Shown piece after piece: positions 630-51,771 of a stretch of DNA of 64,000 nt. The stretch lies in NCBI RefSeq assembly GCF_003334335.1, contig NZ_QOWQ01000006.1. The stretch is one strand, 5' to 3'. The DNA is from Escherichia coli (lineage in GTDB: Bacteria > Pseudomonadota > Gammaproteobacteria > Enterobacterales > Enterobacteriaceae). The stretch's first letter is position 1. Every line of letters starts with the position of its first letter. The translations under genes and the position numbers were made by a program. The notes beneath the pieces were generated by a model. The model worked only from the letters and a program-made list of their open reading frames with translations, searched no databases and was not told the origin of the DNA.

Positions 630-962
630 ATGTTAAAGCAGAAAATTAAAACAATATTTGAAGCATTGCTATATATAATGCTTACTTATTGGTTAATAGA
701 TTCTTTTTTTGCTTTCAATAAGTATGACTGGATGCTTGAGTCGGGAGGAAATATTTGCAGTATACCTTCCGTTTCAGGCGAAGATCGTATATTGCAAGCA
801 ATGATTGCAGCATTTTTTCTTCTTACGCCACTTATTATTCTTATCTTAAGAAAACTCTTTATGCGGGAAATGTTCGAGTTTTGGGTATATGTATTCTCGC
901 TCGGTATTTGTCTGGTTTGTGGTTGGTGGCTTTTTTGGGGACGGTTTATATTTTGCTATTAG
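630..962 (+). CDS. ygiZ: small inner-membrane protein YgiZ
   Basis: 110-aa hydrophobic ORF MLKQKIKTIFEALLYIML... matching size and position of ygiZ between mdaB and qseC. Confidence 0.75.
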   Translation: MLKQKIKTIFEALLYIMLTYWLIDSFFAFNKYDWMLESGGNICSIPSVSGEDRILQAMIAAFFLLTPLIILILRKLFMREMFEFWVYVFSLGICLVCGWWLFWGRFIFCY

Positions 963-1007
963 TAAAATCTATGAGAGTCGTTTTAACGGCTCTCATAGAC
1001 AGAGAAG

Positions 1008-2357
1008 TTACCAGCTTACCTTCGCCTCAAATCCACCTTGTTCCGCATTCCCAAATTCAACATTCATGCCATGCAATTTGGCGATTCGCTGGACAATCGA
1101 TAGCCCAAGCCCGCTGCCGGTAGCGGTTTGTCCGGGTGGGCGATAGAAGCGTTCGCCAATTCGCGCCAGTGCCTCTGGTGTCACACCGGGGCCGTTATCC
1201 CTCACGATGAAATTATCAGCATTCAGCGTGACGTCTACCACGCTGCCCTGTGGACTGTAGCGCACGGCGTTATCCAGCAAATTTCGCACCAACAAACTTA
1301 GCAATAGCGGTTGCCCGGTGCGTTTGATGCTGTGGGCATTGAGTGTCAGTCGCACGTCAATTTTCGCCTGCTGCGCCGTGTGGTAAATATCCATCACCGA
1401 CGATTGCAGGAGATCTTCAAGCGGGATCTCCGCGACGTCCTGAAGGTTATCCAGTGAGTCCAGCCGCGATAGCGTGAGCAGTTGATCAACCAGACGAGTA
1501 GCGCGATCGATCCCGGAATGTAATTGGAGCAGTGCTTTTTTCCGCGCCTGCGGATCATCGTCAGAGAGCTGCGCAACTTCGGTTTGCACTTTCAGCGCCG
1601 TTAACGGGCTACGAAGTTCGTGAGCTGCGTCGGAGGTAAAGCGTCGTTCACGAACCATCATCGCATGTGTGCGGGCGAACAGTTGATTTAGCGACTCAAC
1701 CAGTGGCCGCACTTCGCTGGGTACGCCAGTCGCGTTTAGTGGTTTTTCCGAGTCAGGGTCACGCATACGTAGTGCCAGCGCCAGTTTGTTCAGCGGCGCG
1801 AGTTCACGACCCAGTAGTACCATCATGATGATTAACATAATCGGCAGTGCGACCAGCCACGGGATCAATTGCCCGGCAACAATCGCCAGCGCCATGTCTT
1901 CACGGTATTCCCATTCCTGGCCAACAACGATGCGATATTTGCCATCAGGTGAGGTCATCCAGACAAAACGCCAAGGATCGTCTTCACCGACCAGTTGCCC
2001 GTCAGCAAAACCTTCCCGTTGATAGCTATAGGGAATATCTTCTCCGTTATCGCCATCATTAAGGACCATTCTGCCGTCGTGGGTAAAGATGGCAAAGGTC
2101 AGCGCATCGTCATCAACATGACCGTGTTTTAATCTATTTGGCGTCTGTGCCATGCGATCCGCCGCGTTGATTTCGTTGAGATCGAGCGTACTTAACCGCT
2201 TGGCAAACAGCATCAGTTGGGTGTCGAACAATTCATCGACGTTATCCGTTGTTTGTTTCCAGGCGACAAAGCTGGAAAGCAGCCAGGTCACCGAGGCCAG
2301 AATTAAAAAGATTAGCGTCAGCCTGACGCGCAGACTAAGACGTTGGGTAAATTTCAT
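1008..2357 (-). CDS. qseC: quorum-sensing sensor histidine kinase QseC
   Basis: 449-aa ORF with two TM segments, HAMP region, H-box ([12 protein letters not shown]) and ATPase G-boxes; 4-nt overlap with upstream qseB. Confidence 0.95.
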
Positions 2358-3013
2358 TTCTCACCTAATGTGTAACCAATACCATGCACGGTACGAATAA
2401 AATCACTACCGAGTTTGCGTCGCAGATGATGCACATGCACTTCAACGGCATTACTGGTGACCTCTTCGTCCCAGGTATACAGTTTCTCTTCAATCAGTTT
2501 GCGCGGCAGTACCCGACCAGCGTTACGCATCAGTAATTCCAGCAGGGCAAATTCTTTTGGTTTCAGTGTTAAGGGTTCGCCAGCCAGCGTGGCGATACGT
2601 TTGCCGGGGTCGAGCATGACGTTACCGTGGCGCAGCTCGTTGCTGGCCTGGCCGTTGGTTCGGCGCATCAGAGCTTCCAGCCTGGCGGCGACTTCTATCA
2701 ACGCAAAAGGTTTACACAGATAATCGTCAGCTCCCAGACGCAGCCCTTCTACACGTTCCGCCAGCGCATCGCGCGCGGTCAGGATCAGTACCGGCTCACG
2801 CTGACCTTTTTCTCGCCATTCGCGCAAAATATCGCGACCATCCATGCCTGGTAAGGTTAAATCCAGGATCACCGCATCATAAGGTGCGCTATAAAGCGCC
2901 TCTTTTCCCTGACGACCTTGTGTAAACCAGTCGACGCTAAAACCCATTTTACTAAGGCCCGTTTTGATGCCGTCGCCAATCAGCATGTCATCTTCTATCA
3001 GTAAAATTCGCAT
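2354..3013 (-). CDS. qseB: response regulator QseB (OmpR family)
   Basis: 219-aa [18 protein letters not shown]... receiver domain plus winged-helix C-terminus; coupled to qseC. Confidence 0.95.
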
Positions 3014-3164
3014 TTTTTCATCCCTGCGATAACCGTATTTGCTGCCAGTAAACCGTGTTGTAACGCGCTCTGTACAGCACTAAATTTTATTTTTTTCCCT
3101 TAAGAAGTTGTTAAGGACTATCTTGTTAAATGCTCGGAAACAGACATTAAAGGGAGTAATAAAC

Positions 3165-3557
3165 ATGAAAAAATTCGCAGCAGTAATCGCAGTAATGGCC
3201 CTGTGCAGCGCACCGGTGATGGCAGCAGAGCAGGGCGGTTTTTCTGGCCCATCGGCAACGCAAAGTCAGGCCGGAGGATTCCAGGGGCCGAACGGCAGCG
3301 TAACGACTGTAGAAAGCGCAAAATCCCTGCGTGACGACACCTGGGTAACCCTGCGCGGCAATATCGTTGAACGCATCTCTGACGATCTCTACGTGTTCAA
3401 AGATGCCAGCGGTACTATCAATGTTGATATCGACCACAAACGCTGGAACGGCGTGACGGTGACGCCGAAAGATACGGTTGAGATTCAGGGTGAAGTCGAT
3501 AAAGACTGGAATTCTGTTGAAATTGACGTCAAACAGATCCGCAAAGTAAATCCGTAA
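3165..3557 (+). CDS. ygiW: periplasmic OB-fold stress protein YgiW (VisP)
   Basis: MKKFAAVIAVMALCSAPVMA signal peptide, RBS AGGGAG upstream; the track ORF starts 19 codons earlier at a non-preferred start. Confidence 0.9.
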   Translation: MKKFAAVIAVMALCSAPVMAAEQGGFSGPSATQSQAGGFQGPNGSVTTVESAKSLRDDTWVTLRGNIVERISDDLYVFKDASGTINVDIDHKRWNGVTVTPKDTVEIQGEVDKDWNSVEIDVKQIRKVNP

Positions 3558-16218: not shown

Positions 16219-16322
16219 ACGTTCCTCCTTTATATGAACTCACCGGAGCAGGCTCCGGTGAGGTGTTGTGAACTTAAGTCTGGACGAAATGCCCGAAAAC
16301 GAAAGTTTGAGGCGTAAAAAGC

Positions 16323-22029: not shown

Positions 22030-22250
22030 ATTGCCTGATGCGCTACGCTCATCAGGCCTACAAAATCTATTGCAACATGTTGAATCTTCGTGCGTTTGTA
22101 GGCCGGATAAGGCGTTCACGACGCATCCGGCATTAGGTGCTCAATGCCTGATGCGCTACGCTTATCAGGCCTACAAAATCTATTGCAACATGTTGAATCT
22201 TCATGCGTTTGTAGGCGGATAAGGCGTTTTCGCCACATCAGGTAAGAGTG
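22030..22250. repeat. REP/BIME cluster with roughly 107-bp direct duplication
   Basis: gcctgatgcgctacgct(c/t)atcaggcctacaaaatctattgcaacatgttgaatcttc(g/a)tgcgtttgtaggc... occurs twice (about 22034-22115 and 22141-22222) with palindromic REP units. Confidence 0.85.
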
Positions 22251-33129: not shown

Positions 33130-33225
33130 TAGCTTTCGTAGGCCTGATAAGACGCGGCAGCGTCGCATCAGGCATTGTGCACGATTGCCGGATGCGGCGT
33201 GAACGCCTTATCCGGCCTGGATGGC
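33130..33225. repeat. REP elements between hybG and yghU
   Basis: gtaggcctgataagacgcg...cgcatcaggc and gccggatgcggcgtgaacgccttatccggcc palindromic units. Confidence 0.75.
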
Positions 33226-38017: not shown

Positions 38018-38710
38018 CTAGTGATAACCACGCGCGGTCATAAAATCCGTAATCGCTTTTTCTGCATCAACCAACACCTGTTCCAGTGGCTGATTGGCAT
38101 CGATATCAACCAGTTGTGCACCACCAAAGGTTAACTGTGGCGTTATGGCAATCTTCCTCGCCAGCGATTCCCGTTTATGGTCGGGTTTACGTGCACAGGC
38201 AACTTCAAGGTCAACATTGAGTTTGATGACCAGATCAGGCTTATGGCTCGCCATCCAGTGAAACGCTTTACGTTCCTGGCTTGCCAGCCATGAGACAAAA
38301 CGACCACCTTCAACGTTAGGTGGGAACACCGTACCATCGTAAGCGCCAGGAATTTGGTCCTGAGGATAACGGTCGGTTAGAACAATTAACCCGCGACGAC
38401 GACAGGCAAGCATATGACGAAAGCGCAGTAAGCGACGGGCGACAAACGCTGTAATTACCAGCGCCGGAACTGGTCCAGGCAATTTTTTTGCTGTTTTCAC
38501 CTGATTTCGTTCAATTGTTTTATGTAAGGATTTTCCCATCAACGGTAATTTTGTCACTGCACGACCGACATTTCCGGCCTGTTTTCCTAAATGAACTCTT
38601 TCGGCAGCACCATATTTTTCGACAACGGTAATAAGATGTTCACACACCGTTGACTTGCCTGAACCATCGCTACCAATAACGGCAATTAATGGAGGTGTTA
38701 TTGACTGCAT
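38018..38710 (-). CDS. yghT: P-loop NTPase, predicted kinase-like protein YghT
   Basis: 230-aa ORF with N-terminal Walker [10 protein letters not shown]; shares TDRYPQ and RKPDH motifs with yghS and yghR. Confidence 0.85.
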
Positions 38711-38790
38711 GAATATATCCTTTAATTTAAATATCCATTAAAAATATTTATTTGGTTAATATGTTTTTATGAAAGCGTAATTCAGGTCAA

Positions 38791-38814
38791 TGTCACAATT
38801 AACCATTGTCACAA
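38791..38814. promoter_or_regulatory. direct repeat TGTCACAAT x2 in yghT/yghS divergent promoter region
   Basis: tgtcacaattaaccattgtcacaat; the second copy sits in the perfect palindrome ATTGTCACAAT. Confidence 0.3.
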
Positions 38815-38883
38815 TAAGGTTGAACGGATATTCTGAGCACGGACCACGTAATATTCAATACATTATTTACTGCCGGGTTTTTC

Positions 38884-39597
38884 GTGAATCAACGTAATAT
38901 GTCAATAATTAATTCCACGCCAGTGCGTGTTATTGCCATTGTAGGATGTGATGGTTCAGGTAAATCGACCCTCACGGCAAGCCTGGTAAATGAACTGGCA
39001 GCAAGAATGCCAACAGAACACATTTATCTCGGGCAATCGTCCGGGCGAATTGGCGAATGGATTTCACAGCTCCCTGTTATTGGCGCACCTTTTGGGCGTT
39101 ATCTGCGAAGTAAAGCGGCACATGTGCACGAAAAGCCCTCAACACCGCCTGGCAATATTACTGCACTGGTTATCTATCTGCTTTCCTGCTGGCGGGCGTA
39201 CAAGTTTCGCAAAATGTTGTGTAAAAGCCAGCAAGGCTTTCTGCTCATCACCGACCGCTACCCGCAGGTTGAAGTGCCGGGGTTTCGCTTTGATGGCCCG
39301 CAATTGGCAAAAACCACGGGCGGTAACGGTTGGATAAAAATGTTAAGGCAGCGCGAGCTGAAGCTGTACCAATGGATGGCATCTTATTTGCCCGTATTGT
39401 TGATTCGTCTTGGCATTGATGAACAAACCGCGTTTGCGCGTAAACCTGACCACCAACTGGCAGCGTTACAGGAAAAAATCGCCGTTACGCCGCAACTGAC
39501 ATTCAATGGCGCAAAGATCCTTGAACTGGATGGGCGACACCCCGCCGATGAAATTCTGCAAGCGTCACTACGCGCAATTCACGCCGCGCTTTCCTGA
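38884..39597 (+). CDS. yghS: P-loop NTPase, predicted kinase-like protein YghS
   Basis: 237-aa ORF (GTG start) with Walker A GCDGSGKST; paralog of yghT and yghR. Confidence 0.85.
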   Translation: MNQRNMSIINSTPVRVIAIVGCDGSGKSTLTASLVNELAARMPTEHIYLGQSSGRIGEWISQLPVIGAPFGRYLRSKAAHVHEKPSTPPGNITALVIYLLSCWRAYKFRKMLCKSQQGFLLITDRYPQVEVPGFRFDGPQLAKTTGGNGWIKMLRQRELKLYQWMASYLPVLLIRLGIDEQTAFARKPDHQLAALQEKIAVTPQLTFNGAKILELDGRHPADEILQASLRAIHAALS

Positions 39598-39628
39598 TCA
39601 CCAAAATGGATAGGGGATGATTTAACGA

Positions 39629-40387
39629 ATGGATGCACTACAAACTCAAACTGTTAATAGTACAACCGCGCCGCAGCCCAACTACATTCCGGGGCTGATT
39701 GCGGTGGTCGGGTGTGATGGCACCGGTAAATCCACACTGACCACCGACCTGGTGAAATCGCTGCAACAACACTGGCAAACCGAGCGGCGCTATCTGGGGC
39801 TGCTCTCCGGCGAAGACGGCGACAAAATCAAACGATTGCCGTTGGTTGGCGTCTGGCTGGAACGGCGACTGGCGGCCAAATCCTCGAAAACCCAAAGCAT
39901 GAAAACCAAATCTCCGGCGCTATGGGCGGCGGTGATTATGTACTGCTTCTCGCTGCGAAGAATGGCGAATCTACGCAAGGTTCAGCGACTGGCGCAAAGT
40001 GGCGTTCTGGTGGTCAGCGATCGCTTCCCGCAGGCTGAAATTTCGGGCTTTTATTATGATGGACCGGGGATTGGCGTCGAACGTGCGACCGGGAAAATCA
40101 GCATGTTTCTGGCGCAGCGCGAACGGCGTTTATACCAACAAATGGCGCAATATCGCCCGGAATTAATTATTCGCCTGGGCATTGATATTGAGACTGCCAT
40201 CTCCCGCAAGCCTGACCATGACTATGCCGAGCTGCAGGACAAAATCGGTGTCATGTCGAAGATTGGCTATAACGGCACAAAAATTCTTGAGATTGATTCC
40301 AGAGCGCCCTACAGCGAAGTGCTGGAACAGGCACAGAAGGCGGTTTCTCTGGTTGCCATCGTTTCTGACCGCCGAAGTTTAACTTAA
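39629..40387 (+). CDS. yghR: P-loop NTPase, predicted kinase-like protein YghR
   Basis: 252-aa ORF with Walker A GCDGTGKST and the paralog motifs SDRFPQ, SRKPDH. Confidence 0.85.
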   Translation: MDALQTQTVNSTTAPQPNYIPGLIAVVGCDGTGKSTLTTDLVKSLQQHWQTERRYLGLLSGEDGDKIKRLPLVGVWLERRLAAKSSKTQSMKTKSPALWAAVIMYCFSLRRMANLRKVQRLAQSGVLVVSDRFPQAEISGFYYDGPGIGVERATGKISMFLAQRERRLYQQMAQYRPELIIRLGIDIETAISRKPDHDYAELQDKIGVMSKIGYNGTKILEIDSRAPYSEVLEQAQKAVSLVAIVSDRRSLT

Positions 40388-40432: not shown

Positions 40433-41782
40433 TTGGCGGGTTTTAACATCAAACATTGGTTTGCAGATGGCGCGTTTCGCACCATTATTCGCAATAGCGC
40501 CTGGTTAGGCTCCAGTAATGTCGTGAGCGCCTTGCTGGGTCTGTTGGCGCTCTCGTGTGCCGGTAAAGGGATGACGCCCGCCATGTTTGGCGTACTGGTG
40601 ATTGTGCAATCGTACGCCAAGTCGATCAGCGATTTTATTAAGTTTCAGACATGGCAACTGGTGGTTCAGTACGGAACACCAGCATTAACCAACAATAATC
40701 CGCAGCAATTCCGCAATGTCGTCTCATTTTCCTTCTCGCTGGATATCGTCAGCGGCGCGGTGGCGATTGTCGGTGGCATTGCCTTACTGCCATTCCTTTC
40801 CCATTCATTAGGTCTGGATGACCAAAGTTTTTGGCTGGCAGCGCTCTATTGCACGCTCATTCCTTCAATGGCTTCCTCCACGCCGACCGGCATTCTGCGT
40901 GCGGTAGATCGCTTCGATTTAATTGCTGTACAGCAGGCGACGAAACCTTTTCTGCGCGCAGCGGGGAGCGTCGTAGCCTGGTATTTTGACTTTGGTTTTG
41001 CGGGTTTTGTTATTGCCTGGTACGTGTCGAATCTGGTTGGCGGCACCATGTACTGGTGGTTTGCCGCGCGCGAATTACGCCGCCGAAATATCCATAACGC
41101 CTTCAAATTGAATCTGTTTGAGTCTGCCCGATACATTAAAGGCGCGTGGAGTTTTGTCTGGTCAACCAACATTGCCCACTCCATCTGGTCGGCGCGTAAC
41201 TCGTGCAGCACAGTGTTGGTGGGGATCGTGTTAGGACCCGCTGCCGCCGGGTTATTTAAAATCGCCATGACATTCTTCGACGCCGCCGGAACGCCAGCGG
41301 GTTTGCTGGGTAAAAGTTTTTACCCAGAGGTGATGCGTTTAGATCCGCGCACCACCAGACCGTGGTTGTTAGGTGTGAAGTCCGGTTTACTGGCGGGCGG
41401 AATCGGTATTCTGGTGGCGCTCGCGGTGTTGATCGTCGGCAAGCCGCTCATTTCGCTGGTGTTTGGCGTTAAGTATCTCGAAGCGTATGACCTGATTCAG
41501 GTGATGCTGGGCGCAATTGTGATTTCGATGCTGGGCTTCCCTCAGGAGTCATTGCTATTGATGGCGGGAAAACAGCGCGCTTTTCTCGTGGCGCAAACCA
41601 TCGCCTCAATCGGCTACATCGTATTGCTGTTCATGTTCTGTCATCTGTTTGGTGTGCTGGGAGCAGCGTTTGCTTACTTCGGTGGGCAATGTCTGGACGT
41701 GGCGCTCTCGTTAATTCCAACCTTAAAGGCATTTTTTCAGCGCCATTCCTTGCTTTATAACGCAGCCGGAGAGAAATCCTGA
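40433..41782 (+). CDS. yghQ: MOP-superfamily (Wzx-like) flippase YghQ, full length
   Basis: 449-aa polytopic ORF; start codon uncertain (track start is TTG); stop overlaps the next gene start (TGATG). Confidence 0.8.
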   Translation: MAGFNIKHWFADGAFRTIIRNSAWLGSSNVVSALLGLLALSCAGKGMTPAMFGVLVIVQSYAKSISDFIKFQTWQLVVQYGTPALTNNNPQQFRNVVSFSFSLDIVSGAVAIVGGIALLPFLSHSLGLDDQSFWLAALYCTLIPSMASSTPTGILRAVDRFDLIAVQQATKPFLRAAGSVVAWYFDFGFAGFVIAWYVSNLVGGTMYWWFAARELRRRNIHNAFKLNLFESARYIKGAWSFVWSTNIAHSIWSARNSCSTVLVGIVLGPAAAGLFKIAMTFFDAAGTPAGLLGKSFYPEVMRLDPRTTRPWLLGVKSGLLAGGIGILVALAVLIVGKPLISLVFGVKYLEAYDLIQVMLGAIVISMLGFPQESLLLMAGKQRAFLVAQTIASIGYIVLLFMFCHLFGVLGAAFAYFGGQCLDVALSLIPTLKAFFQRHSLLYNAAGEKS

Positions 41783-42606
41783 TGATGAGAAAATATTTCC
41801 CGCTTGAGGCGAGCGAGCGTCTATTTGTTGCGATTGAAGAAGATGATGTCGTTGATGCACAGGTTAGTTTGCCGCCGACTATTGCACTAAGTTGTACCAC
41901 CGAAATCATTCATGATAATTACGCGTTATGCCTGCAATTCTGGCTCAATGGCGTTGATCGTCAGGAGTTACTGCGTTTAGTTCGCAAACAAGCCAAAGGC
42001 GATGAGCTGACTGCTGATGAGCGCAAACAATTTAAATACATGCGAGCGCGCTACAAGCACCTGCGTTTTGCGCAACGGCTGTATTTAAAGAAGCATCAGG
42101 CCGGATTTTTATTCGGCAAAACGACCGTTTTTCTGGGGCGTTTTCAGGACGGCTTTCGTAACGGTAAGAAAAATATTGTGTCGTATTACGGCAACCTGTT
42201 ACGGATTTATTTAAGCTCTCCGGTCTGGTCGTTGGTGAACTATTCATTACGCCATAGCCAGTTAGAAAGCGTAAGCAGTTTTATTGCCTATCGGCAAAAG
42301 CAAATGCATACCCTGAAAGAGATTATTGCCAAACCGCGACTAACCGGTAGGGAATTTCATGATGTGCGAAAAATCATCAGCCAGCAGGTTTCTTATTACG
42401 ACACCTTAAGATCGCTTGATCCTGAAAATAAAGAGGCGTTACAGATATCCCGCTTCCTCGCCGCCATTAATGGCCTGATGGGAGATAAACACGACGACAT
42501 GGTGGCGGATGATATGGAAAACCGCCAGTCGTATGATGCACCGGTGGCGCTGGATAGCGATATTCGTCAGCGCTTAGAGCTGCTGATTTCGCGTTTTCCG
42601 CTATAG
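41782..42606 (+). CDS. hypothetical cytoplasmic protein (274 aa), coupled to yghQ
   Basis: ORF MMRKYFPLEASERLFVAIEEDD...; 1-nt overlap with the yghQ stop; no motif I can recognise. Confidence 0.6.
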   Translation: MMRKYFPLEASERLFVAIEEDDVVDAQVSLPPTIALSCTTEIIHDNYALCLQFWLNGVDRQELLRLVRKQAKGDELTADERKQFKYMRARYKHLRFAQRLYLKKHQAGFLFGKTTVFLGRFQDGFRNGKKNIVSYYGNLLRIYLSSPVWSLVNYSLRHSQLESVSSFIAYRQKQMHTLKEIIAKPRLTGREFHDVRKIISQQVSYYDTLRSLDPENKEALQISRFLAAINGLMGDKHDDMVADDMENRQSYDAPVALDSDIRQRLELLISRFPL

Positions 42607-42614
42607 CCGGAGCA

Positions 42615-43178
42615 ATGATGTCATCTCGTTTGATTATTGCGTTGATTATCATGCTCTTAGCCCCGGGTGTGCAGGCACACAATTTCGTCACTGGCAAAAC
42701 GGTTACCCCTGTTTATATCCAGGAAGGCGGCGAGCTGCTTCTGAATAGCGACGACGAAATTCACTACCAAAAGTGGAACAGCACACAATTAGCGGGAAAA
42801 GTCCGCATTATTCAGTATATCGCCGGGCGTAAGTCGGCGAAGAAAAAGAACTCACTGTTAATTAAAGCGGTTGAAGCGGCAAACTTTCCGCAGGATCGTT
42901 TTCAGCCCACCACCATTGTGAACACCGATGATGCCATCTTTGGTACTGGCTATTTTGTTGTTGGCAAAATCGAAAAAAATAAACGCCGCTATCCGTGGGC
43001 GCAATTCGTTATTGACGGCAATGGACAGGGACGCGTTGCCTGGCGCTTGCCGGAGCAGAGTTCAACCATTCTGGTGCTGAATAAAGCCGGGCAAATTCAG
43101 TGGGCAAAGGACGGCAGCCTGACGCCGGAAGAGGTAGATCATGTCATTGCGTTGGCGCAGAAACTGATCAATGAATAA
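42615..43178 (+). CDS. periplasmic YtfJ/HI0045-like protein
   Basis: 187-aa ORF with signal peptide MMSSRLIIALIIMLLAPGVQA and motifs (AGKVRIIQYIAGR, TTIVNTDDAI, QWAKDGSLTPEEV) that I recall from YtfJ. Confidence 0.65.
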   Translation: MMSSRLIIALIIMLLAPGVQAHNFVTGKTVTPVYIQEGGELLLNSDDEIHYQKWNSTQLAGKVRIIQYIAGRKSAKKKNSLLIKAVEAANFPQDRFQPTTIVNTDDAIFGTGYFVVGKIEKNKRRYPWAQFVIDGNGQGRVAWRLPEQSSTILVLNKAGQIQWAKDGSLTPEEVDHVIALAQKLINE

Positions 43179-43208: not shown

Positions 43209-44279
43209 ATGAAGCTGGTTGAACACTACATCATGCGTGGTACGCGCCGTCTGGTGCTGATTATCGTCGGTTTTCTGATCTTTATTTTCGCCAGCTACTC
43301 CGCACAGCGTTATCTGACCGAAGCGGCAAATGGGACATTAGCTCTTGATGTTGTGCTGGATATCGTTTTCTACAAAGTACTGATTGCACTGGAGATGTTG
43401 TTACCTGTTGGTCTGTATGTGTCAGTTGGCGTGACGCTAGGGCAGATGTATACCGACTCGGAAATTACCGCTATCTCTGCGGCGGGGGGCAGTCCGGGAC
43501 GCTTGTACAAAGCCGTTCTTTATCTGGCGATACCGCTAAGTATTTTTGTCACCCTTCTGTCGATGTATGGTCGTCCGTGGGCTTATGCGCAGATTTATCA
43601 ACTGGAGCAGCAGTCGCAGTCGGAGCTGGATGTTCGCCAGTTGCGGGCAAAGAAATTTAACACTAACGATAACGGACGAATGATCCTTTCGCAGACGGTT
43701 GATCAGGATAATAATCGCCTGACTGACGCGCTGATTTATACTTCTACTGCCAATCGAACCCGCATTTTCCGCGCCCGTTCGGTTGATGTGGTTGACCCAT
43801 CACCCGAGAAACCGACCGTTATGTTGCACAACGGCACTGCCTATCTTATCGATCATCAGGGGCGTGATGACAACGAACAGATCTACCGTAATCTGCAATT
43901 ACATCTGAATCCGCTGGATCAAAGCCCTAACGTCAAACGCAAAGCGAAATCGGTCACGGAGCTGGCGCGCTCCGTCTTTCCAGCCGATCATGCCGAACTG
44001 CAATGGCGGCAAAGCCGTGGCCTGACCGCATTGTTGATGGCGCTGCTGGCCATTTCATTAAGTCGGGTAAAACCGCGGCAAGGGCGATTTTCAACGTTAT
44101 TGCCACTGACGTTGCTGTTTATTGCCATTTTTTATGGCGGTGACGTCTGCCGTACGCTGGTGGCTAACGGCGCGATTCCCCTCATTCCTGGTTTGTGGTT
44201 AGTACCCGGACTCATGCTAATGGGCCTGCTGATGCTGGTCGCACGCGACTTCTCTTTGCTGCAGAAATTTTCCCGATGA
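43209..44279 (+). CDS. LptF/LptG-family (YjgP/YjgQ) permease, first of pair
   Basis: 356-aa ORF; YTDSEITAISAAG and KPRQGRFSTLLP resemble the LptF motifs YTESEIT and NPRQGR; multiple TM segments with a large periplasmic loop. Confidence 0.75.
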   Translation: MKLVEHYIMRGTRRLVLIIVGFLIFIFASYSAQRYLTEAANGTLALDVVLDIVFYKVLIALEMLLPVGLYVSVGVTLGQMYTDSEITAISAAGGSPGRLYKAVLYLAIPLSIFVTLLSMYGRPWAYAQIYQLEQQSQSELDVRQLRAKKFNTNDNGRMILSQTVDQDNNRLTDALIYTSTANRTRIFRARSVDVVDPSPEKPTVMLHNGTAYLIDHQGRDDNEQIYRNLQLHLNPLDQSPNVKRKAKSVTELARSVFPADHAELQWRQSRGLTALLMALLAISLSRVKPRQGRFSTLLPLTLLFIAIFYGGDVCRTLVANGAIPLIPGLWLVPGLMLMGLLMLVARDFSLLQKFSR

Positions 44280-45355
44280 ATGTTTTCAGCCGCTATTTAA
44301 TCCGTCATCTCTTTCTCGGTTTTGCCGCCGCCGCAGGGCTATTGCTGCCGCTTTTTACCACCTTCAACCTGATTAACGAACTGGATGATGTCAGCCCGGG
44401 CGGTTATCGCTGGACTCAGGCGGTGCTGGTGGTGCTAATGACCTTACCGCGCACACTGGTCGAACTTTCGCCATTTATCGCCTTATTGGGAGGGATTGTC
44501 GGCCTGGGGCAGTTATCGAAAAACAGTGAGCTTACCGCCATTCGCAGCATGGGGTTTTCTATCTTCCGTATTGCACTGGTGGCGCTGGTTGCAGGGATAT
44601 TGTGGACTGTTTCGTTAGGCGCGATAGATGAGTGGGTAGCGTCGCCATTACAGCAACAGGCGTTGCAAATCAAATCGACCGCCACCGCGTTGGGGGAGGA
44701 CGATGACATTACCGGCAATATGCTGTGGGCCAGGCGTGGTAATGAATTTGTGACGGTGAAATCGCTGAACGAGCAGGGCCAGCCGGTGGGCGTGGAGATT
44801 TTTCATTATCGCGACGATCTCTCGCTCGAATCCTACATTTATGCACGCAGTGCCACCATTGAAGACGACAAAACGTGGATCCTGCATGGTGTGAATCATA
44901 AAAAATGGCTGAATGGCAAAGAAACGCTGGAAACATTAGATAATCTTGCCTGGCAATCGGCCTTCACCAGTATGGATCTTGAAGAGTTATCAATGCCGGG
45001 CAATACTTTTTCTGTCCGTCAGCTTAATCATTACATCCATTATTTGCAGGAAACCGGGCAACCCAGCAGCGAATACCGCCTTGCACTGTGGGAAAAACTG
45101 GGGCAACCCATCCTGACCCTGGCGATGATTTTGCTGGCTGTGCCGTTTACCTTTAGCGCCCCGCGCTCGCCAGGGATGGGTAGCCGTCTCGCTGTAGGTG
45201 TCATCGTTGGCTTACTCACCTGGATCAGCTATCAAATCATGGTCAATCTGGGATTGCTATTTGCGTTGAGCGCACCTGTTACCGCGCTCGGTTTACCGAT
45301 AGCGTTTGTGCTGGTGGCGTTGAGCCTGGTGTATTGGTATGACAGACAACATTAA
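44276..45355 (+). CDS. LptF/LptG-family (YjgP/YjgQ) permease, second of pair
   Basis: Start at MNVFSRYLIRHLFLGF via ATGA overlap with the upstream stop; LptG-like motifs (ELTAIRSMGFS, RSPGMGSRLAVG); the track ORF is extended 27 codons upstream. Confidence 0.75.
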   Translation: MNVFSRYLIRHLFLGFAAAAGLLLPLFTTFNLINELDDVSPGGYRWTQAVLVVLMTLPRTLVELSPFIALLGGIVGLGQLSKNSELTAIRSMGFSIFRIALVALVAGILWTVSLGAIDEWVASPLQQQALQIKSTATALGEDDDITGNMLWARRGNEFVTVKSLNEQGQPVGVEIFHYRDDLSLESYIYARSATIEDDKTWILHGVNHKKWLNGKETLETLDNLAWQSAFTSMDLEELSMPGNTFSVRQLNHYIHYLQETGQPSSEYRLALWEKLGQPILTLAMILLAVPFTFSAPRSPGMGSRLAVGVIVGLLTWISYQIMVNLGLLFALSAPVTALGLPIAFVLVALSLVYWYDRQH

Positions 45356-45356
45356 A

Positions 45357-45383
45357 CCCGCCGTGGCGCAACACCACGGCGGG
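45357..45383. terminator. bidirectional hairpin between the permease operon and the SPT-like gene
   Basis: cccgccgtgg-cgcaaca-ccacggcggg inverted repeat. Confidence 0.6.
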
Positions 45384-45459
45384 CTCACATTACTGCTTCA
45401 GAGTAGCAAATGCCTGAATGATGGCATCGATTTGCTCACGACTGTGAGCAGCGTTTACG

Positions 45460-46569
45460 CTACAGCGCAGCAGCGTGATGCCTGCAGGCGCGGCAGGTGG
45501 CAGGTGGCAGGATAAGATTCACATAAACGCCCAGCGAAATAAGCTCGCGCCAGATGCGTAAACCGTCCTCTTTCGAACCGATTATTACCGGCACTACCGG
45601 GCTAATATGTGAACTTAACTCATAACCCAGTTTTTGCAGACCGTCATACAGATGGTTGGCATTATCCATCAGCTTTTGCCGCAGCTCTGGTTGTGTGGCA
45701 ATAGTTCTTAACGACGAGCGCACGGTCGCAATGCAGGACGGAGAAGGAGAGGCGGTAAAAATATACGGGCGGCTGCCGTAGCGCAGCACTTCCATCGCTT
45801 CCGAACCGACAGCAAAACCGCCAATCGAGGCCAGACTTTTACTGAAGGTGCCAACGATAATATCCACATCATCTTCAACGCCGACAGCTTCAGCCAGTCC
45901 GCGCCCCGTTGCGCCTAACACGCCAAACGAATGCGCTTCATCGACAATCAAATAACCACCGAGACGACGTTTGATATCAACAATTTCCGCTAACGGCGCA
46001 ACGTCACCGAGCATGCTGTAGATACCCTCAACGATGATAATCGCCTCTTTCGCCCGTTCACCGAGGCGAACCATGCGCCGTTCCAGATCTTTAGCATCGT
46101 TATGGCGGAAACGAATAATTTCCGCGCCACCGAGAGAACAGGCGTCATAAATACTGGCGTGGCTGTCGGCATCCAGTAACACCACGGCGTTATGGTCGGC
46201 AAGTGCGCTGATGACGCCTAAATTAGCGGTATAACCGGTTGAAAAAACGATAGCGGTAGGGCGATTGAAAAACTCGGCAATCTCTTTCTCTAACGCCAGG
46301 TGCGGCGCATAACTGCCGTTTGCCATACGAGAACCGGTGGTGCCGGTACCTTGGGCCGCTAACGCGGCCTGACCTTCGCTGATGGCATCATGATTAAAGG
46401 TTAAACCGAGATAATTATTGGTCCCGGCCAGAATCACTTTTTTATTGCCGATCCGGCCTTCGGTGGCGGAATACACTTCATCAATACAGGTGCCAAACGG
46501 TGTTAACCCGTTGTCACTAAATTGCAGTCGCTCGCCAGCAAGGCGCGCATATTTATCGTATAGCCCCAT
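45460..46569 (-). CDS. serine palmitoyltransferase-like alpha-oxoamine synthase (PLP-dependent), 3' end apparently frameshifted
   Basis: 369-aa ORF with GTFSKS PLP-lysine motif and class-II aminotransferase fold; C-terminus TCRACRHHAAAL is atypical, and an alternative frame restores a canonical end at the TAA at 45390-45392. Confidence 0.8.
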   Translation of the reverse strand: MGLYDKYARLAGERLQFSDNGLTPFGTCIDEVYSATEGRIGNKKVILAGTNNYLGLTFNHDAISEGQAALAAQGTGTTGSRMANGSYAPHLALEKEIAEFFNRPTAIVFSTGYTANLGVISALADHNAVVLLDADSHASIYDACSLGGAEIIRFRHNDAKDLERRMVRLGERAKEAIIIVEGIYSMLGDVAPLAEIVDIKRRLGGYLIVDEAHSFGVLGATGRGLAEAVGVEDDVDIIVGTFSKSLASIGGFAVGSEAMEVLRYGSRPYIFTASPSPSCIATVRSSLRTIATQPELRQKLMDNANHLYDGLQKLGYELSSHISPVVPVIIGSKEDGLRIWRELISLGVYVNLILPPATCRACRHHAAAL

Positions 46570-46817
46570 TATTTATTCTCCAGCCATGGAAGTAGAGTTT
46601 CCATTAATTGCGCAGGGGTTTTGACATCCAGCAGAATATTAATAGGAATGGAAATATCGAATCTGTCTTCCAGCATCATTAAGAGATCCATCACTTTGAT
46701 CGACTCCAGGCCAAGATCGTTGACGAGATCGCTGTCGGGCTTAATTTCCACACCGTTTTCGACCAAATCCTGTAAACAGGAAAGGATGTAATCCATTACT
46801 ATTTCACGATTTACCAT
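46569..46817 (-). CDS. acyl carrier protein (phosphopantetheine-binding)
   Basis: 82-aa acidic ORF with DLGLESIKVMDL Ser-attachment motif; 1-nt overlap with the downstream SPT-like start. Confidence 0.8.
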   Translation of the reverse strand: MVNREIVMDYILSCLQDLVENGVEIKPDSDLVNDLGLESIKVMDLLMMLEDRFDISIPINILLDVKTPAQLMETLLPWLENK

Positions 46818-46848
46818 AGAAACGTTAACACACCTTTAAACAAGACAA

Positions 46849-47763
46849 TCAAAATAGCCCGTTGCGTAATGCGTGTTCCAGGCTAATCCCGGGAAACCAA
46901 TTAATATCTTCAGAAATACGGTTATTACTTGCCGACCAGTCGGCGTGGGTTAATTCACGAATTTTCGAGCGGGTCAGCATAGGTTCTTTACCTGCCAGGC
47001 GACTCAACGCGGTACTGATATCCGCAAGGCCGGTGAGTACCGGCAGAGGAATGCCAACCATTCGCACGGAACCGCAACGGGCGTCGGCGGCAAGTTGCTG
47101 TACGCGTTGCCAGTCATAGCCGCCGGCGACGCCATCGCATAATTCATAGGTTTGCGTCTGTATAGTTTCGGCGCTTAACCACTGACCCACTGCTTGCGCG
47201 AAATCGGTGACGTGCAGAAAAGAGAGCTGTGTATCTGGCGCACCAAGTCGTGGCAGCAGGCCGCGCAGCATCCAGTCAAACAGCGGTTTTAACTCTTTAT
47301 CGCCGGGACCATACACGGCTGTCGGGCGAAAAACGCCCAGCGTAATTTCGTCCGCCATTGCTGCCAGTCGTTGCTCGGCGACGTATTTGGATTTTGCATA
47401 CCAGGAGAGCTCGGGATGGCGCGCCGCCAGCGAAGAGATAAACAGAAAACGTTGGCAAAAGCCGCTCTCTTTTGCTGCTTGCATCAGGCGCAGGCTGCCG
47501 TCAACGTTACAGCGGGTGAAAATCTCTTCTTTGTGCCCGCGCACTTGCCCGGCGCAATGGACCACTACGCTGGCTCCGGCAACCAGCTCGCTAAGTGAAT
47601 GAGTATCTTCCAGCGAACCGCGCACCCAGGTGAGATTATCATTGACGTGAGCGCGGGCAGTACGCGTCAATGCGCGAACGTGAAAGCCGCGGGCGAGCAG
47701 GTTATCGATAATATATTTACCGATAAACCCGGTAGCGCCCGTCACCGCGACAGTTTGATTCAT
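46849..47763 (-). CDS. NAD(P)-dependent epimerase/dehydratase-family reductase (candidate 3-ketosphinganine/ceramide reductase)
   Basis: 304-aa ORF with VTGATGFIGKYI Rossmann motif and YAKSK catalytic dyad; 4-nt overlap with the upstream adenylase gene. Confidence 0.8.
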   Translation of the reverse strand: MNQTVAVTGATGFIGKYIIDNLLARGFHVRALTRTARAHVNDNLTWVRGSLEDTHSLSELVAGASVVVHCAGQVRGHKEEIFTRCNVDGSLRLMQAAKESGFCQRFLFISSLAARHPELSWYAKSKYVAEQRLAAMADEITLGVFRPTAVYGPGDKELKPLFDWMLRGLLPRLGAPDTQLSFLHVTDFAQAVGQWLSAETIQTQTYELCDGVAGGYDWQRVQQLAADARCGSVRMVGIPLPVLTGLADISTALSRLAGKEPMLTRSKIRELTHADWSASNNRISEDINWFPGISLEHALRNGLF

Positions 47764-49481
47764 GCCAGGGATTCCTGCACATTAAGACTGGCAGCATAAG
47801 CCTTCTGATAACGTTTTTTCGCTTCCGCACGGGCAGGCTTGCCGGAGGACGTTCGGGGAATACTGTGGGGCGGCAACAGATCGATAGCCGCGGTCACGCC
47901 AAATTCGCTTTGGATCCGTGCCGCCAGCGCGTGGATAAGCTGCCCGCGACGTTCTTCGTCGCTGATCCGACACTGGATCTGCAAAATGATTTTTTCCTGG
48001 GCGGTAACAAAAGCAATCGCATCGCCAGAATGAATTTCCGGTTCCTGTTCCGCTATATATTCAATATCCTGCGGCCAGATATTACGGCCACGAATAATAA
48101 TCAGATCTTTAATGCGTCCGGTGACATACAGATAACCGTCCAGCAGATAACCGAGGTCGCCGGTGTCTAACCAGCCCGTCGCGGCAATCTCGTCTTGCGA
48201 AACCTGGTCGCCAAAGTAACCGCTCATCAGACTGGGACCGGAGATGCAAATATGGCCTACCACACGTTCCGCGACCGGCATACCTGCTTCATTGCGGATT
48301 TCAATACCATGTTCCGGCAACGCTTTGCCGCAGTTGACGAAAGTCGATACGGCGCGTGTCTCTGCACCCGGCGCGACGGCTTTACCCTGATATTCGAGGA
48401 TGTCGCGATCCACTTCGTTAACCACAACCCCGGAGGCTTCATCAGAGAAGCTGACAGCCAGCGCATTTTCTGCCAGTCCGTAGCACGGCATGAAAGTTTT
48501 ATTGTCAAAGTTAACCTGACGGAAACATTCAGCGAATTGATGGAGTTGTTCTGCGGAGATGGGTTCTGCACCAATACCAGCGACGCGCCAGCAGGAAAGA
48601 TCCAGTTCAGCGAGATCTTTTTCATTCACGCGGCGCTGGCACAATTCATAGCCAAACGGCGGCGCAACGGAAACGGTGCCGCGATTTTTACTGATCAATT
48701 TAAGCCATTGCAGAGGACGCATGGCAAAATCCTGAGTGCGCAAATAATCTACTGAAAGCTGCGTGGCGACGGGGGTCAGGAGAAAGCCGACCAGTCCCAT
48801 ATCATGGTAGAAAGGCAGCCAGGAGACGCAGCGGTCGCCAGGGCGTAATTTAATGCCGTCGTGGCTTATAGCACGTAGATTAGCCATCACTTCGCGATGG
48901 GTGATAATGACGCCACGGGGAAAACGGGTGCTGCCGGAGGTGTACTGGAGGTAGGCGATATCGTTCGGAACTGGACGCTGGAGCGCAACATCGGCTTCCG
49001 GTAATGCCTTAAACCAGGCGTGGCTTAAAACATGTAATTCGGGGTTGTCATGCGTCGCGGCATTGACCAGTGGCAACCACTCATCACCAGTGATAATGGC
49101 TGCGGGCTGGCAACTTGCCAGTAAACCCTGCAATTTGGCGCTCCAGGAATCCCGCTGACCAACGCCCATTGGAATCGCCAACGGGACGGCGACTAAGCCG
49201 GCATACTGGCAGGCAAAAAAAGCCTCTACGAACTCGCTACTTGTTTCGGCAATCAGTGCCACGCGATCGCCTTTTTTCAGGTTCAGCGATAACAACCGCT
49301 TCGCACCAGCTTCGGCACGTGCTTTTAACGTCTGATATTCCAGTTGATCTTCAAGTTGGCAACGTCTGTCATAAAAATTCATTCCGGCGCTACTCAGAGC
49401 GGCGTAGTCCAAAGCATCAACAAGCGTTGGAAAATCGGCATAGCGCATAGGTAGGGAATGCGTAAAGATTTTATTAGACAT
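47760..49481 (-). CDS. fatty acyl-AMP ligase / acyl-ACP synthetase-like adenylating enzyme
   Basis: About 573 aa with AMP-binding core YTSGSTRFPRGV and TGDLGY motif; start uncertain (track starts at GTG 49490, ATG at 49481). Confidence 0.8.
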   Translation of the reverse strand: MSNKIFTHSLPMRYADFPTLVDALDYAALSSAGMNFYDRRCQLEDQLEYQTLKARAEAGAKRLLSLNLKKGDRVALIAETSSEFVEAFFACQYAGLVAVPLAIPMGVGQRDSWSAKLQGLLASCQPAAIITGDEWLPLVNAATHDNPELHVLSHAWFKALPEADVALQRPVPNDIAYLQYTSGSTRFPRGVIITHREVMANLRAISHDGIKLRPGDRCVSWLPFYHDMGLVGFLLTPVATQLSVDYLRTQDFAMRPLQWLKLISKNRGTVSVAPPFGYELCQRRVNEKDLAELDLSCWRVAGIGAEPISAEQLHQFAECFRQVNFDNKTFMPCYGLAENALAVSFSDEASGVVVNEVDRDILEYQGKAVAPGAETRAVSTFVNCGKALPEHGIEIRNEAGMPVAERVVGHICISGPSLMSGYFGDQVSQDEIAATGWLDTGDLGYLLDGYLYVTGRIKDLIIIRGRNIWPQDIEYIAEQEPEIHSGDAIAFVTAQEKIILQIQCRISDEERRGQLIHALAARIQSEFGVTAAIDLLPPHSIPRTSSGKPARAEAKKRYQKAYAASLNVQESLA

Positions 49482-49857
49482 ATACACCACGAAAAAATTG
49501 GATATCCAAAATAAAATGACAATAATGCGGTGGATTATATAGGCATAAAAGATAAATGAGATAGTATTTTCATCAGTGTGAAAATGAACATTGATTTAAA
49601 TAATGAGTTTGAGTTTTTTTGTTTTTATTGTGAATGATATTTAATTTATGAATATATTAAGAAGAAGCCTTGTCCGGTCGCCTTAAATCGACAAAAGGCA
49701 TTGTGGCGCTTCTGTGTAGTCTCTGACCTTATCGTAATCATTAATAAATACTATTTATTCGTCGTTTGTATTCATTGGGTTGATTATTAAGGTGCCGTTC
49801 GTTGCTGTTGCAACCTGTTTGTCACCGTTAATTATTTGTTACCCACAGAACAGAACT

Positions 49858-51000
49858 ATGGAATGCGATCTGCTGATGATTAAAATTGAAAAAGTAATTA
49901 ATAAAAATGACCTTAAGGCATTTATCGCTTTTCCGTCATCACTTTATCCCGACGATCCAAACTGGATACCCCCTTTATTCATTGAACGCAACGAGCATTT
50001 GTCTGCGAAAAATCCGGGGACGGACCATATCATCTGGCAGGCGTGGGTAGCAAAAAAAGCGGGGCAGATAGTTGGGCGTATTACCGCGCAAATAGATACC
50101 TTGCACCGCGAGCGTTACGGCAAAGATACCGGTCATTTCGGCATGATTGACGCCATTGATGATCCGCAGGTTTTTGCCGCGTTGTTTGGCGCAGCGGAAG
50201 CGTGGTTGAAGTCACAAGGTGCAAGTAAGATCAGCGGTCCTTTCAGCCTGAATATCAATCAGGAAAGCGGATTACTGATTGAAGGTTTTGACACACCACC
50301 CTGTGCGATGATGCCACACGGCAAACCGTGGTATGCCGCGCATATTGAACAACTGGGTTATCACAAAGGCATTGATTTACTGGCGTGGTGGATGCAGCGA
50401 ACCGATCTCACTTTCTCTCCGGCGCTAAAAAAACTGATGGATCAGGTGCGCAAAAAGGTGACCATTCGCTGCATCAATCGTCAGCGGTTTGCCGAAGAGA
50501 TGCAGATCCTGCGTGAGATTTTCAACTCTGGCTGGCAGCACAACTGGGGATTTGTGCCGTTTACCGAACATGAATTCGCGACCATGGGCGATCAACTTAA
50601 ATATCTGGTGCCGGACGATATGATCTATATCGCTGAGATTGATTCTGCACCCTGCGCGTTTATTGTCGGCTTGCCGAACATCAACGAGGCGATTGCCGAT
50701 CTGAACGGATCGCTCTTTCCCTTCGGCTGGGCAAAATTGCTGTGGCGTTTGAAAGTCAGCGGTGTGCGAACTGCGCGAGTACCGCTGATGGGCGTGCGCG
50801 ACGAGTATCAGTTCAGCCGCATCGGCCCGGTGATTGCGCTGTTATTGATTGAAGCCTTACGCGATCCGTTTGCCCGCCGGAAGATCGATGCGCTGGAGAT
50901 GTCATGGATCCTCGAAACCAATACAGGCATGAATAACATGCTGGAACGCATTGGGGCGGAGCCGTACAAGCGTTACCGATTGTATGAAAAGCAGATTTAA
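49858..51000 (+). CDS. yghO: YghO, intact (candidate N-acyltransferase; pseudogene in K-12)
   Basis: About 380 aa from MECDLLMIKIEK (track ORF starts at TTG 49780); divergent from the lipid operon; start uncertain. Confidence 0.7.
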   Translation: MECDLLMIKIEKVINKNDLKAFIAFPSSLYPDDPNWIPPLFIERNEHLSAKNPGTDHIIWQAWVAKKAGQIVGRITAQIDTLHRERYGKDTGHFGMIDAIDDPQVFAALFGAAEAWLKSQGASKISGPFSLNINQESGLLIEGFDTPPCAMMPHGKPWYAAHIEQLGYHKGIDLLAWWMQRTDLTFSPALKKLMDQVRKKVTIRCINRQRFAEEMQILREIFNSGWQHNWGFVPFTEHEFATMGDQLKYLVPDDMIYIAEIDSAPCAFIVGLPNINEAIADLNGSLFPFGWAKLLWRLKVSGVRTARVPLMGVRDEYQFSRIGPVIALLLIEALRDPFARRKIDALEMSWILETNTGMNNMLERIGAEPYKRYRLYEKQI

Positions 51001-51006
51001 TACCAG

Positions 51007-51771
51007 CTAACTCAGGTTCATCTCCAGCGGCACCGCCGAGCGAATCAAATGGTGGCCTTCCAGCTCGATATCGTGGAGATTCTTTTTCACGGTCCGCACA
51101 TGATCGCGTGCTGCGCGCTGGGCGACGTGCGGCAGCCGCTGCAACACCGCGTTGTAGATCCGCGCATGCTGGCGATCGATCTGCTTTTTTTGCTGTGGTC
51201 GATGGTAGAGATTATTTACGCTGGCAAACACTGAATTAAACATCAGATCGGTCAATGATTGCAGCGTAAACACCAGCACCTGATTGTGAGAAGCCTGACA
51301 AATGGCGAGATGGAAAGCGTGATCCAACTGCGCATGTTCGATCAGCGAAATCTCTTTGTTGTTCTCACTGGCGGCGAGCATTTTTTCATAACAGCGGGTT
51401 ATCACAACAAAATCAGCCTGCGTTCCCAGCGTTGCCGCCAGCCTTGCCGATTCGCCCTCCAGTAATGCGCGAACGTCGAGCAGATCGTACAGCGTTCGCG
51501 GCTGCGTACTGAACAGATGGATCAGCGGGCTGGTGTCCTGCACCCGATTAAGCCGTGCGACACGAGAATCGCGACCCTGCGCCGTTTCAATAATCCCGCG
51601 CCCGCGCAGCACGGTCAGCCCTTCACGCAGTGCGGAGCGTGAGAAGCCGAGCTTTTCACACAGTCGACGTTCCGAGGGAAGCGGCTGACCGACCTTCAGT
51701 ACGCCGTCGATAATTAACCGTTCGATACTCTCTGCAACCACTTCGCAAATAGGGCGACGTTCATCTTTCAT
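51007..51771 (-). CDS. glcC: GntR/FadR-family glycolate-responsive activator GlcC
   Basis: Start at MKDERRPICEVVAESIERLI (254 aa); the track ORF is 20 codons longer. Confidence 0.93.
   Translation of the reverse strand: MKDERRPICEVVAESIERLIIDGVLKVGQPLPSERRLCEKLGFSRSALREGLTVLRGRGIIETAQGRDSRVARLNRVQDTSPLIHLFSTQPRTLYDLLDVRALLEGESARLAATLGTQADFVVITRCYEKMLAASENNKEISLIEHAQLDHAFHLAICQASHNQVLVFTLQSLTDLMFNSVFASVNNLYHRPQQKKQIDRQHARIYNAVLQRLPHVAQRAARDHVRTVKKNLHDIELEGHHLIRSAVPLEMNLS

Follow-up and report, generated by a model that had tools for sequence, protein, structure and literature searches.

A four-gene operon of Escherichia coli, encoding an adenylase, a short-chain dehydrogenase/reductase (SDR), an acyl carrier protein (ACP) as well as a serine palmitoyltransferase (SPT), is very probably the first-step module of the ceramide (sphingolipid) cluster of this species, in which a fatty acyl-AMP ligase (FAAL) charges the carrier AcpR and acyl-AcpR supplies the condensing enzyme Spt. 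We analyzed this operon in a stretch of 64,000 nt from assembly GCF_003334335.1 (contig NZ_QOWQ01000006.1), here called the window, where it lies on the minus strand at 45460-49490. The mechanism is already known, having been published between 2011 and 2022 for these same E. coli proteins. In that literature, adenylation, rejection of coenzyme A (CoA), loading of the ACP, its phosphopantetheinylation, and serine- and acyl-AcpR-dependent formation of 3-oxo-sphinganine have been shown on identical or near-identical proteins. The additions made by the present analysis are minor, i.e. the identity of the protein named EcFAAL in one body of work with that named AasR_Ec in another, and a rare, probably inactivating frameshift in spt that is specific to the strain.

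In the scheme considered here, EcFAAL/AasR_Ec adenylates a free long-chain fatty acid, being unable to use CoA, and the acyl group passes from the FAAL to the phosphopantetheine arm on Ser39 of AcpR. Spt, a pyridoxal 5'-phosphate (PLP) enzyme that favors acyl-AcpR as its thioester substrate, then condenses the acyl group with L-serine, releasing CO2 and yielding 3-oxo-sphinganine. The SDR reductase, whose gene is co-transcribed, would perform the keto reduction and the divergently encoded YghO the N-acylation, leading to dihydroceramide. A mechanism of this kind accounts for the way in which some proteobacteria channel free fatty acids into sphingolipid synthesis instead of beta-oxidation.

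The operon and its adenylase/carrier pair

The features on which the argument rests are the following.

47760-49490, minus strand: fatty acyl-AMP ligase (EcFAAL = AasR_Ec, acyl-AcpR synthetase), from open reading frame (ORF) translation
48909-48944, minus strand: adenylation core motif YTSGSTRFPRGV, residues 183-194, from translation
48330-48449, minus strand: FAAL-specific insertion region, residues about 348-387, FSDEASGVVVNEVDRDILEYQGKAVAPGAETRAVSTFVNC, from pairwise alignment with FadD b1805
46849-47763, minus strand: SDR reductase, 304 amino acids (aa), from ORF translation
46569-46817, minus strand: acyl carrier protein AcpR_Ec (= EcACP), 82 aa, from ORF translation
45460-46569, minus strand: spt, serine palmitoyltransferase, frameshifted allele, 369 aa, from ORF translation
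45353-45387, minus strand: hairpin resembling a terminator (16-pair stem), 3 nt past the wild-type spt stop, between spt and a convergent lptG paralogue
49491-49857, no strand: AT-rich intergenic stretch separating the divergent FAAL gene and yghO, from sequence
49858-51000, plus strand: yghO, divergent, 380 aa, from RefSeq annotation

A preliminary description of the window, made from the letters alone, had given a gene order with coordinates, an adenylase of 573-576 aa, and overlaps of 4 nt and 1 nt between adjacent genes, all of which we confirmed by direct reading of the sequence. The minus strand of 45460-49490 holds four consecutive genes (adenylase, SDR reductase, ACP, and SPT) forming one operon. 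The start ATG of the reductase gene overlaps the stop of the FAAL gene in an ATGA at 47760-47763 (GCATGAAT), the stop of the ACP gene and the start of spt share a single base, an A, in a TAATG at 46569 (AAATAATGGGG), and 31 nt separate the reductase and ACP genes. Translational coupling by these overlaps and the terminator after spt count in favor of the scheme. There are three start codons to be considered for the adenylase: a GTG at 49490 (576 aa), an ATG at 49481 (573 aa), which is the experimental start, and an ATG at 49448 (562 aa), which is the RefSeq start. The promoters of the FAAL gene and yghO presumably lie in 49491-49857, a placement that we infer only, because a consensus promoter scan of this intergenic region returned no more sites than shuffled sequence. 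No Rfam element falls within the operon, all Rfam matches of the window being elsewhere.

Of 5426 complete E. coli genomes, 4066 carry the 5.8-kb stretch 45300-51100, which includes the operon and yghO, with an identity of at least 95% and a coverage of at least 80%. In these genomes RefSeq labels the genes fatty acyl-AMP ligase, NAD-dependent epimerase/dehydratase family protein, acyl carrier protein, spt, and yghO. Because the region is so widespread and is annotated in complete genomes, the ORFs of the operon are real genes rather than chance reading frames.

The adenylase is identical over 573 of 573 residues to PDB 3PBK, the E. coli "Fatty Acyl-Adenylate Ligase." With the protein itself already crystallized, structure prediction was unnecessary. 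The NCBIfam fatty acyl-AMP ligase model NF006624 scores 877.9 bits (cut-off 600), and all of the ANL core motifs are found, i.e. YTSGSTRFPRGV (A3) at residue 183, YGLAE (A5) at 337, TGD (A7) at 443, and SGK (A10) at 549. A Pfam AMP-binding match is on record for the identical product. Assignment to the FadD-type long-chain acyl-CoA synthetases was considered and rejected, as the FadD model NF006523 gives only 102.2 bits against a cut-off of 884, identity to E. coli FadD is 27%, and the FAAL-specific insertion is present. That insertion, which the preliminary description had proposed to look for, amounts to 27 residues without counterpart in E. coli FadD, the one acyl-CoA ligase aligned, between YGLAE (337) and G388, and it has been described structurally for EcFAAL 3PBK (PMC8460268, PMC11837247). 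In addition, all 10 published landmark residues of EcFAAL are at their published positions in the 576-aa numbering (W224, M231, F279, T252, R258, T83, P107, P310, Y337, and V456). Of these, W224, M231, and F279 block the canonical CoA pocket, T252 and R258 are the ends of the FAAL-specific helix, and T83 and P107 belong to an alternative pocket (PMC8460268).

The behavior of the enzyme agrees with its sequence. In the assays of Patil et al. (eLife 2021, PMC8460268), wild-type EcFAAL gave 16.66 for acyl-AMP versus 0.18, which is background, for acyl-CoA, and the same paper says of FAALs in general that they "otherwise do not make any acyl-CoA." The claim of the preliminary description that the adenylase is a FAAL rather than a FadD-type ligase is thus borne out by the identity to 3PBK, by the profile scores, and by published enzymology. 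It also bears on a different account of the locus, in which the adenylase would be a plain FadD-type acyl-CoA synthetase, acyl-CoA would be the substrate of the condensing enzyme, as for eukaryotic SPT, and the small ORF would be irrelevant or encode no carrier. Older annotations do name such genes acyl-CoA synthetases, and SPT_Ec, like Sphingomonas SPT, yields minor 3-oxo-sphinganine from palmitoyl-CoA in vitro. Against this stand the profile scores, the insertion and the residues occluding the CoA pocket, the lack of acyl-CoA production by wild-type EcFAAL, the phosphopantetheinylation of the ACP and its loading by EcFAAL, and the failure of SPT alone to give 3-oxo-sphinganine in vivo. With published assays already refuting it, we give this account next to no probability.

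Under the FAAL-to-AcpR-to-Spt scheme, the small ORF is the carrier, and its features are those of one. The 82-aa protein has the motif DLGLESI at residues 34-40, with the phosphopantetheine site at Ser39 (codon TCG at 46701-46703) within LGLES39I, and a Pfam PP-binding match is on record for the identical product. It is a small PP-binding protein whose gene is directly upstream of spt in the same operon, as in AcpR, and it is identical over 82 of 82 residues to ECD_02853 of BL21(DE3). It is also distinct from the housekeeping carrier of E. coli, AcpP, to which it shows only a local match of 35 residues with 14 of 35 identical (40%). None of the NCBIfam ACP models reaches its cut-off for this protein.

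The published primers allowed us to tie the bench work to these genes. The EcFAAL forward primer matches exactly and uniquely at 49454-49481, the EcACP primers match exactly and uniquely at 46794-46817 and 46572-46589 (gene span 46572-46817), and the primer for the S39A apo-mutant has an exact and unique match at 46667-46722. Hence the pair assayed in vitro is the gene pair in the window. EcFAAL moved radiolabelled fatty acid to holo-EcACP, with no transfer in the absence of ATP and none to the Ser-to-Ala (apo) mutant (PMC8460268). AcpR_Ec takes up beta-[3H]alanine (Padilla-Gomez et al., Front Microbiol 2022, PMC9386255), which shows that it carries 4'-phosphopantetheine. The dedicated 82-aa ACP of the preliminary description is thus a carrier that EcFAAL loads in its holo and not in its apo form. 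The outcome named there as contrary to the proposal, acyl-CoA formation in vitro and a small protein without phosphopantetheine, is the opposite of the published data on both counts.

These proteins have been studied under two sets of names. EcFAAL (3PBK; UniProt A0A0H2VDD9) and EcACP (A0A2X1NC35) are the same protein and the product of the same ACP gene as in the window, with no difference at the level of sequence; the published behavior of EcFAAL is to make acyl-AMP, to exclude CoA through an occluded pocket and the FAAL-specific helix, and to reach holo-ACP via the alternative pocket. The tripartite AasR/AcpR/SPT system of Rhodobacteria, as studied in BL21(DE3) (ECD_02851/02853/02854 in NC_012971.2; PMC9386255), has the same locus, gene order, and flanking genes as the window. 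The window differs from BL21(DE3) in the spt frameshift after residue 357 and in three substitutions in the FAAL, which is identical to ECD_02851 over 559 of 562 residues (P150S, V208A, and D523A in the 562-aa numbering). Text searches found no citation of the FAAL structural work and no use of the abbreviation FAAL in the sphingolipid paper (PMC9386255), and no mention of sphingolipid, ceramide, or SPT in the FAAL papers (PMC8460268, PMC11837247). EcFAAL (3PBK) and AasR_Ec are one protein, an equation stated in neither literature. This link is a matter of bookkeeping, not new biology.

Outside E. coli, the gene order aasR-reductase-acpR-spt tracks the Caulobacter crescentus locus tags CC_1165 to CC_1162 numerically. 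The tripartite genes of that species (CC_1165/1163/1162) use the same mechanism, from fatty acid to acyl-AcpR to condensation with serine (PMC9386255). The best non-E. coli relatives of the adenylase in the PDB are mycobacterial FAALs (E about 1e-57 to 1e-67). Like EcFAAL, mycobacterial FAALs such as FadD28 and FadD32, which loads Pks13, have the ANL fold and the FAAL-specific insertion, make acyl-AMP, and hand the acyl group to a phosphopantetheine arm. They differ in what follows: in mycobacteria the acyl group goes to an ACP domain within a polyketide synthase (PKS) and the product is a mycolic acid or complex polyketide lipid, whereas in E. coli it is accepted by a free-standing 82-aa ACP and consumed by a PLP-dependent alpha-oxoamine synthase.

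Condensation with serine and the later steps

The NCBIfam SPT equivalog model NF047599 (cut-off 500) scores 599.2 bits for the intact spt allele. The best structural relative of intact E. coli Spt is the SPT of Sphingomonas paucimobilis (SpSPT; PDB 2JG2, E = 3.9e-111), whose PLP lysine K265 and arginine R390 correspond to K244 and R366 in the E. coli protein. Sphingomonas SPT has classically been assayed with palmitoyl-CoA, whereas E. coli SPT prefers acyl-AcpR. Co-expression of AasR_Ec, AcpR_Ec, and SPT_Ec produced 3-oxo-sphinganine, SPT alone in E. coli gave none in vivo, and AasR_Ec paired with its own AcpR and not with that of Caulobacter (PMC9386255). In extracts supplied with L-[14C]serine, SPT_Ec strongly preferred palmitoyl-AcpR over both palmitoyl-CoA and palmitoyl-AcpP (PMC9386255). 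The feeding of the condensing enzyme by acyl-ACP, as suggested in the preliminary description, is thus confirmed for the three proteins together, and the amino acid, which had been left general, is L-serine.

The two remaining steps of the scheme would fall to the reductase and YghO. The reductase belongs to the extended-SDR NAD-dependent epimerase/dehydratase family, with Pfam Epimerase/3Beta_HSD matches on record for the identical product, and is identical to ECD_02852 of BL21(DE3), the same accession (WP_001077166.1) serving BL21(DE3) and strain 300709. ECD_02852 (epi or CerR) has been put forward as the 3-keto reductase of the ceramide pathway (PMC9386255). YghO is likewise identical in strain 300709 and BL21(DE3) (WP_001300526.1); it carries the K-12 annotation "putative DNA-binding transcriptional regulator" and has been proposed, as ECD_02850, to be the N-acyltransferase (ceramide synthase) for dihydroceramide and a homologue of CC_1154 (PMC9386255). 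We infer both roles in E. coli from homology to CC_1164 and CC_1154, which is taken from PMC9386255. All five ceramide-cluster genes, i.e. spt, acpR, aasR, the reductase gene epi/CerR, and the N-acyltransferase gene aca/bCerS, are clustered here, as in BL21(DE3), a clustering noted only in Caulobacter and E. coli BL21 (PMC9386255).

Several points weigh against the scheme or narrow it. The carrier in the in vitro assay of SPT_Ec was acyl-AcpR of Caulobacter rather than that of E. coli (PMC9386255); a preference of SPT_Ec for its own acyl-AcpR_Ec is what the assay would lead one to expect. Independence from the AcpP pool, which the preliminary description had also proposed, agrees with the condensing step, where SPT_Ec prefers palmitoyl-AcpR over palmitoyl-AcpP. 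For the loading step, rejection of AcpP by E. coli AasR may be expected by analogy, its direct demonstration being for Caulobacter AasR only, which acylates neither CoA nor housekeeping ACPs (PMC9386255). BL21(DE3) with an empty vector gave no 3-oxo-sphinganine (PMC9386255), which may mean that the cluster on the chromosome is silent or conditional, and no native sphingolipid from wild-type E. coli has been reported in the literature. YghO is without any Pfam or NCBIfam family match. Finally, the predicted inactivity of the truncated Spt described below follows from its homology to SpSPT around Arg390.

A frameshifted spt allele

The spt gene in the window differs from the wild type by two linked features.

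45492-45498, minus strand: 7-nt tandem duplication in spt, from alignment to strain 300709 and sequence
45390-45491, minus strand: out-of-frame spt 3' remnant, APAGITLLRCSVNAAHSREQIDAIIQAFATLKQ followed by a stop, including Arg366, from translation

Where the wild-type coding strand has CTGCCAC-CTGCCGC, that of the window reads CTGCCAC-CTGCCAC-CTGCCGC. The extra copy, next to a neighbor that matches it at 6 of 7 positions, is a typical slippage-type tandem duplication. Over 45300-51100, these 7 nt are the single indel between the window and strain 300709, the one other difference being a silent single-nucleotide polymorphism in yghO, and the remaining island genes in the window are identical to those of that strain. 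The duplication had been missed in the preliminary description.

The consequence is a protein of 369 aa, ending in LILPPATCRACRHHAAAL, compared to 390 aa for RefSeq spt. Residues 1-357 are identical to BL21(DE3) SPT (357 of 357), after which the frame is lost (the last shared residue being A357), residues 358-390 are replaced, and 12 out-of-frame residues precede a stop. The window allele still scores 554.9 bits with NF047599 and covers only profile positions 1-361 of 394. It keeps K244, aligned with the PLP lysine K265 of SpSPT. Unlike Sphingomonas SPT, it is without the segment from residue 358 on, including Arg366, which aligns with SpSPT Arg390 (PDB 2JG2). In SpSPT, Arg390 is part of the mobile C-terminal "PATP" loop, where it recognizes the carboxylate of serine and stabilizes the quinonoid intermediate (PMC11906848, which deals with the role of R378/R390 in SPT). 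An intact loop with this conserved arginine is the sole feature of family membership that the window Spt lacks. By comparison with SpSPT, Spt in this strain is likely to be inactive or severely impaired. The window spt is probably a family member by descent and a pseudogene in the strain, which would then produce acyl-AcpR at most and no sphingoid base, the condensing step probably being dead.

No copy of the duplication turned up in the 4104 complete E. coli genomes with this stretch, all of which align at no more than 94.2% across it, 94.2% being what the gap alone produces. The exact 369-aa product is, on the other hand, recorded on 11 contigs of Logan read-set assemblies, and the identical duplicated sequence was found in the four Logan loci fetched (runs ERR13330971, ERR10114333, ERR10140859, and SRR27904302). 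Because it was assembled independently from at least four read sets, the duplication is a real, rare allele rather than an assembly artefact. We therefore consider it unlikely that the frameshift is a sequencing or assembly error, or that the 369-aa enzyme is still active, so that the pathway would be fully functional in the strain. This view could draw on the absence of the allele from complete genomes, on the score of the truncated ORF above the SPT cut-off, and on the preservation of the PLP lysine together with most of the fold. It is countered by the identical duplication in the public read sets and their contigs, by the nature of the change, a tandem copy beside a near-identical neighbor being typical of slippage and not a homopolymer-type error, and by the loss of the arginine equivalent to SpSPT R390 with its loop.

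The same allele touches the question of what the FAAL/ACP pair feeds. It might mainly, or additionally, serve an acceptor other than Spt, such as YghO (for ceramide's second acyl chain) or an unlinked acyltransferase of PKS/nonribosomal peptide synthetase (NRPS) type or lipid A type, the situation in most FAAL systems characterized so far. FAALs are best known as PKS/NRPS loaders, and the frameshift lineage has kept the FAAL, ACP, reductase, and all neighboring genes intact while spt is broken. Since the allele is so rare, however, intact neighbors are expected after a recent loss-of-function mutation and are not evidence of selection. The island is devoid of PKS and NRPS genes, translation of spt is coupled to that of acpR, and the three-gene set suffices for 3-oxo-sphinganine, with each part needed. 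We regard such an acceptor as very improbable.

Neighboring genes and genomic setting

The genes on the far side of spt may be relevant to the fate of a ceramide-type lipid.

38018-40387: three paralogous P-loop proteins, yghT, yghS, and yghR, at the island border
40433-41782, plus strand: full-length MOP-family flippase, yghQ gene, 449 aa, from family match
40433-43178, plus strand: the flippase, a 274-aa protein, and a YtfJ-family protein, between the P-loop genes and lptF2
43209-44279 and 44276-45355, plus strand: second lptF and lptG copies, convergent with spt, above the NCBIfam LptF/LptG cut-offs

The essential lptFG pair sits elsewhere in E. coli, and the second copies share the terminator region of spt. 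They parallel LptF2 and LptG2 of Caulobacter, whose sphingolipid region holds LptF2, LptG2, LptC2, and a flippase, the proposed exporters of phosphosphingolipid (PMC11324152). The flippase, the 274-aa protein, and the YtfJ-family protein are each absent or truncated in K-12 MG1655, yghQ being truncated in K-12 by IS5. The 274-aa protein has no Pfam or NCBIfam family match. We also considered YghR, YghS, and YghT as ceramide kinases and rejected them as homologues of CpgB, the ceramide kinase of Caulobacter: CpgB is of the LCB5/diacylglycerol-kinase type, whereas YghS and YghR, the two of the three P-loop proteins that were scanned, have only weak matches to dTMP-kinase or AAA models.

These neighbors suggest a tentative extension of the scheme, which we hold to be possible rather than probable. 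Most natural E. coli have the island intact, and such strains might make a ceramide-type lipid from acyl-AcpR natively, under conditions that laboratory work has yet to reproduce, and the LptF/LptG copies and the MOP flippase might export it to the outer membrane. If this is true, the rare 7-nt frameshift allele is a natural spt knockout with which to probe the idea.

As a whole, the window (mdaB ... hyb ... yghT ... glc) is ordinary E. coli chromosome. It is ∼99.9% identical to strain 300709 (NZ_CP025903.1), with which it is collinear. A separate 1-nt indel relative to that strain lies within about the first 3.2 kb of the window (∼1-3200) and shifts the two sequences against each other as far as that position. 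K-12 MG1655 is without the island, lost through an IS5-associated deletion, and has an IS5 element between yghO and the truncated yghQ. The absence of the island from K-12 MG1655 is presumably why its genes are little known. In the rest of the window, the matches above the Rfam gathering threshold are ordinary features of the E. coli chromosome, namely C0719 small RNA (sRNA), ES173 sRNA, and two naRNA4 (REP-derived) elements, with coordinates, in the order reported, of 58464-58685, 16257-16320, 22101-22171, and 33141-33217.

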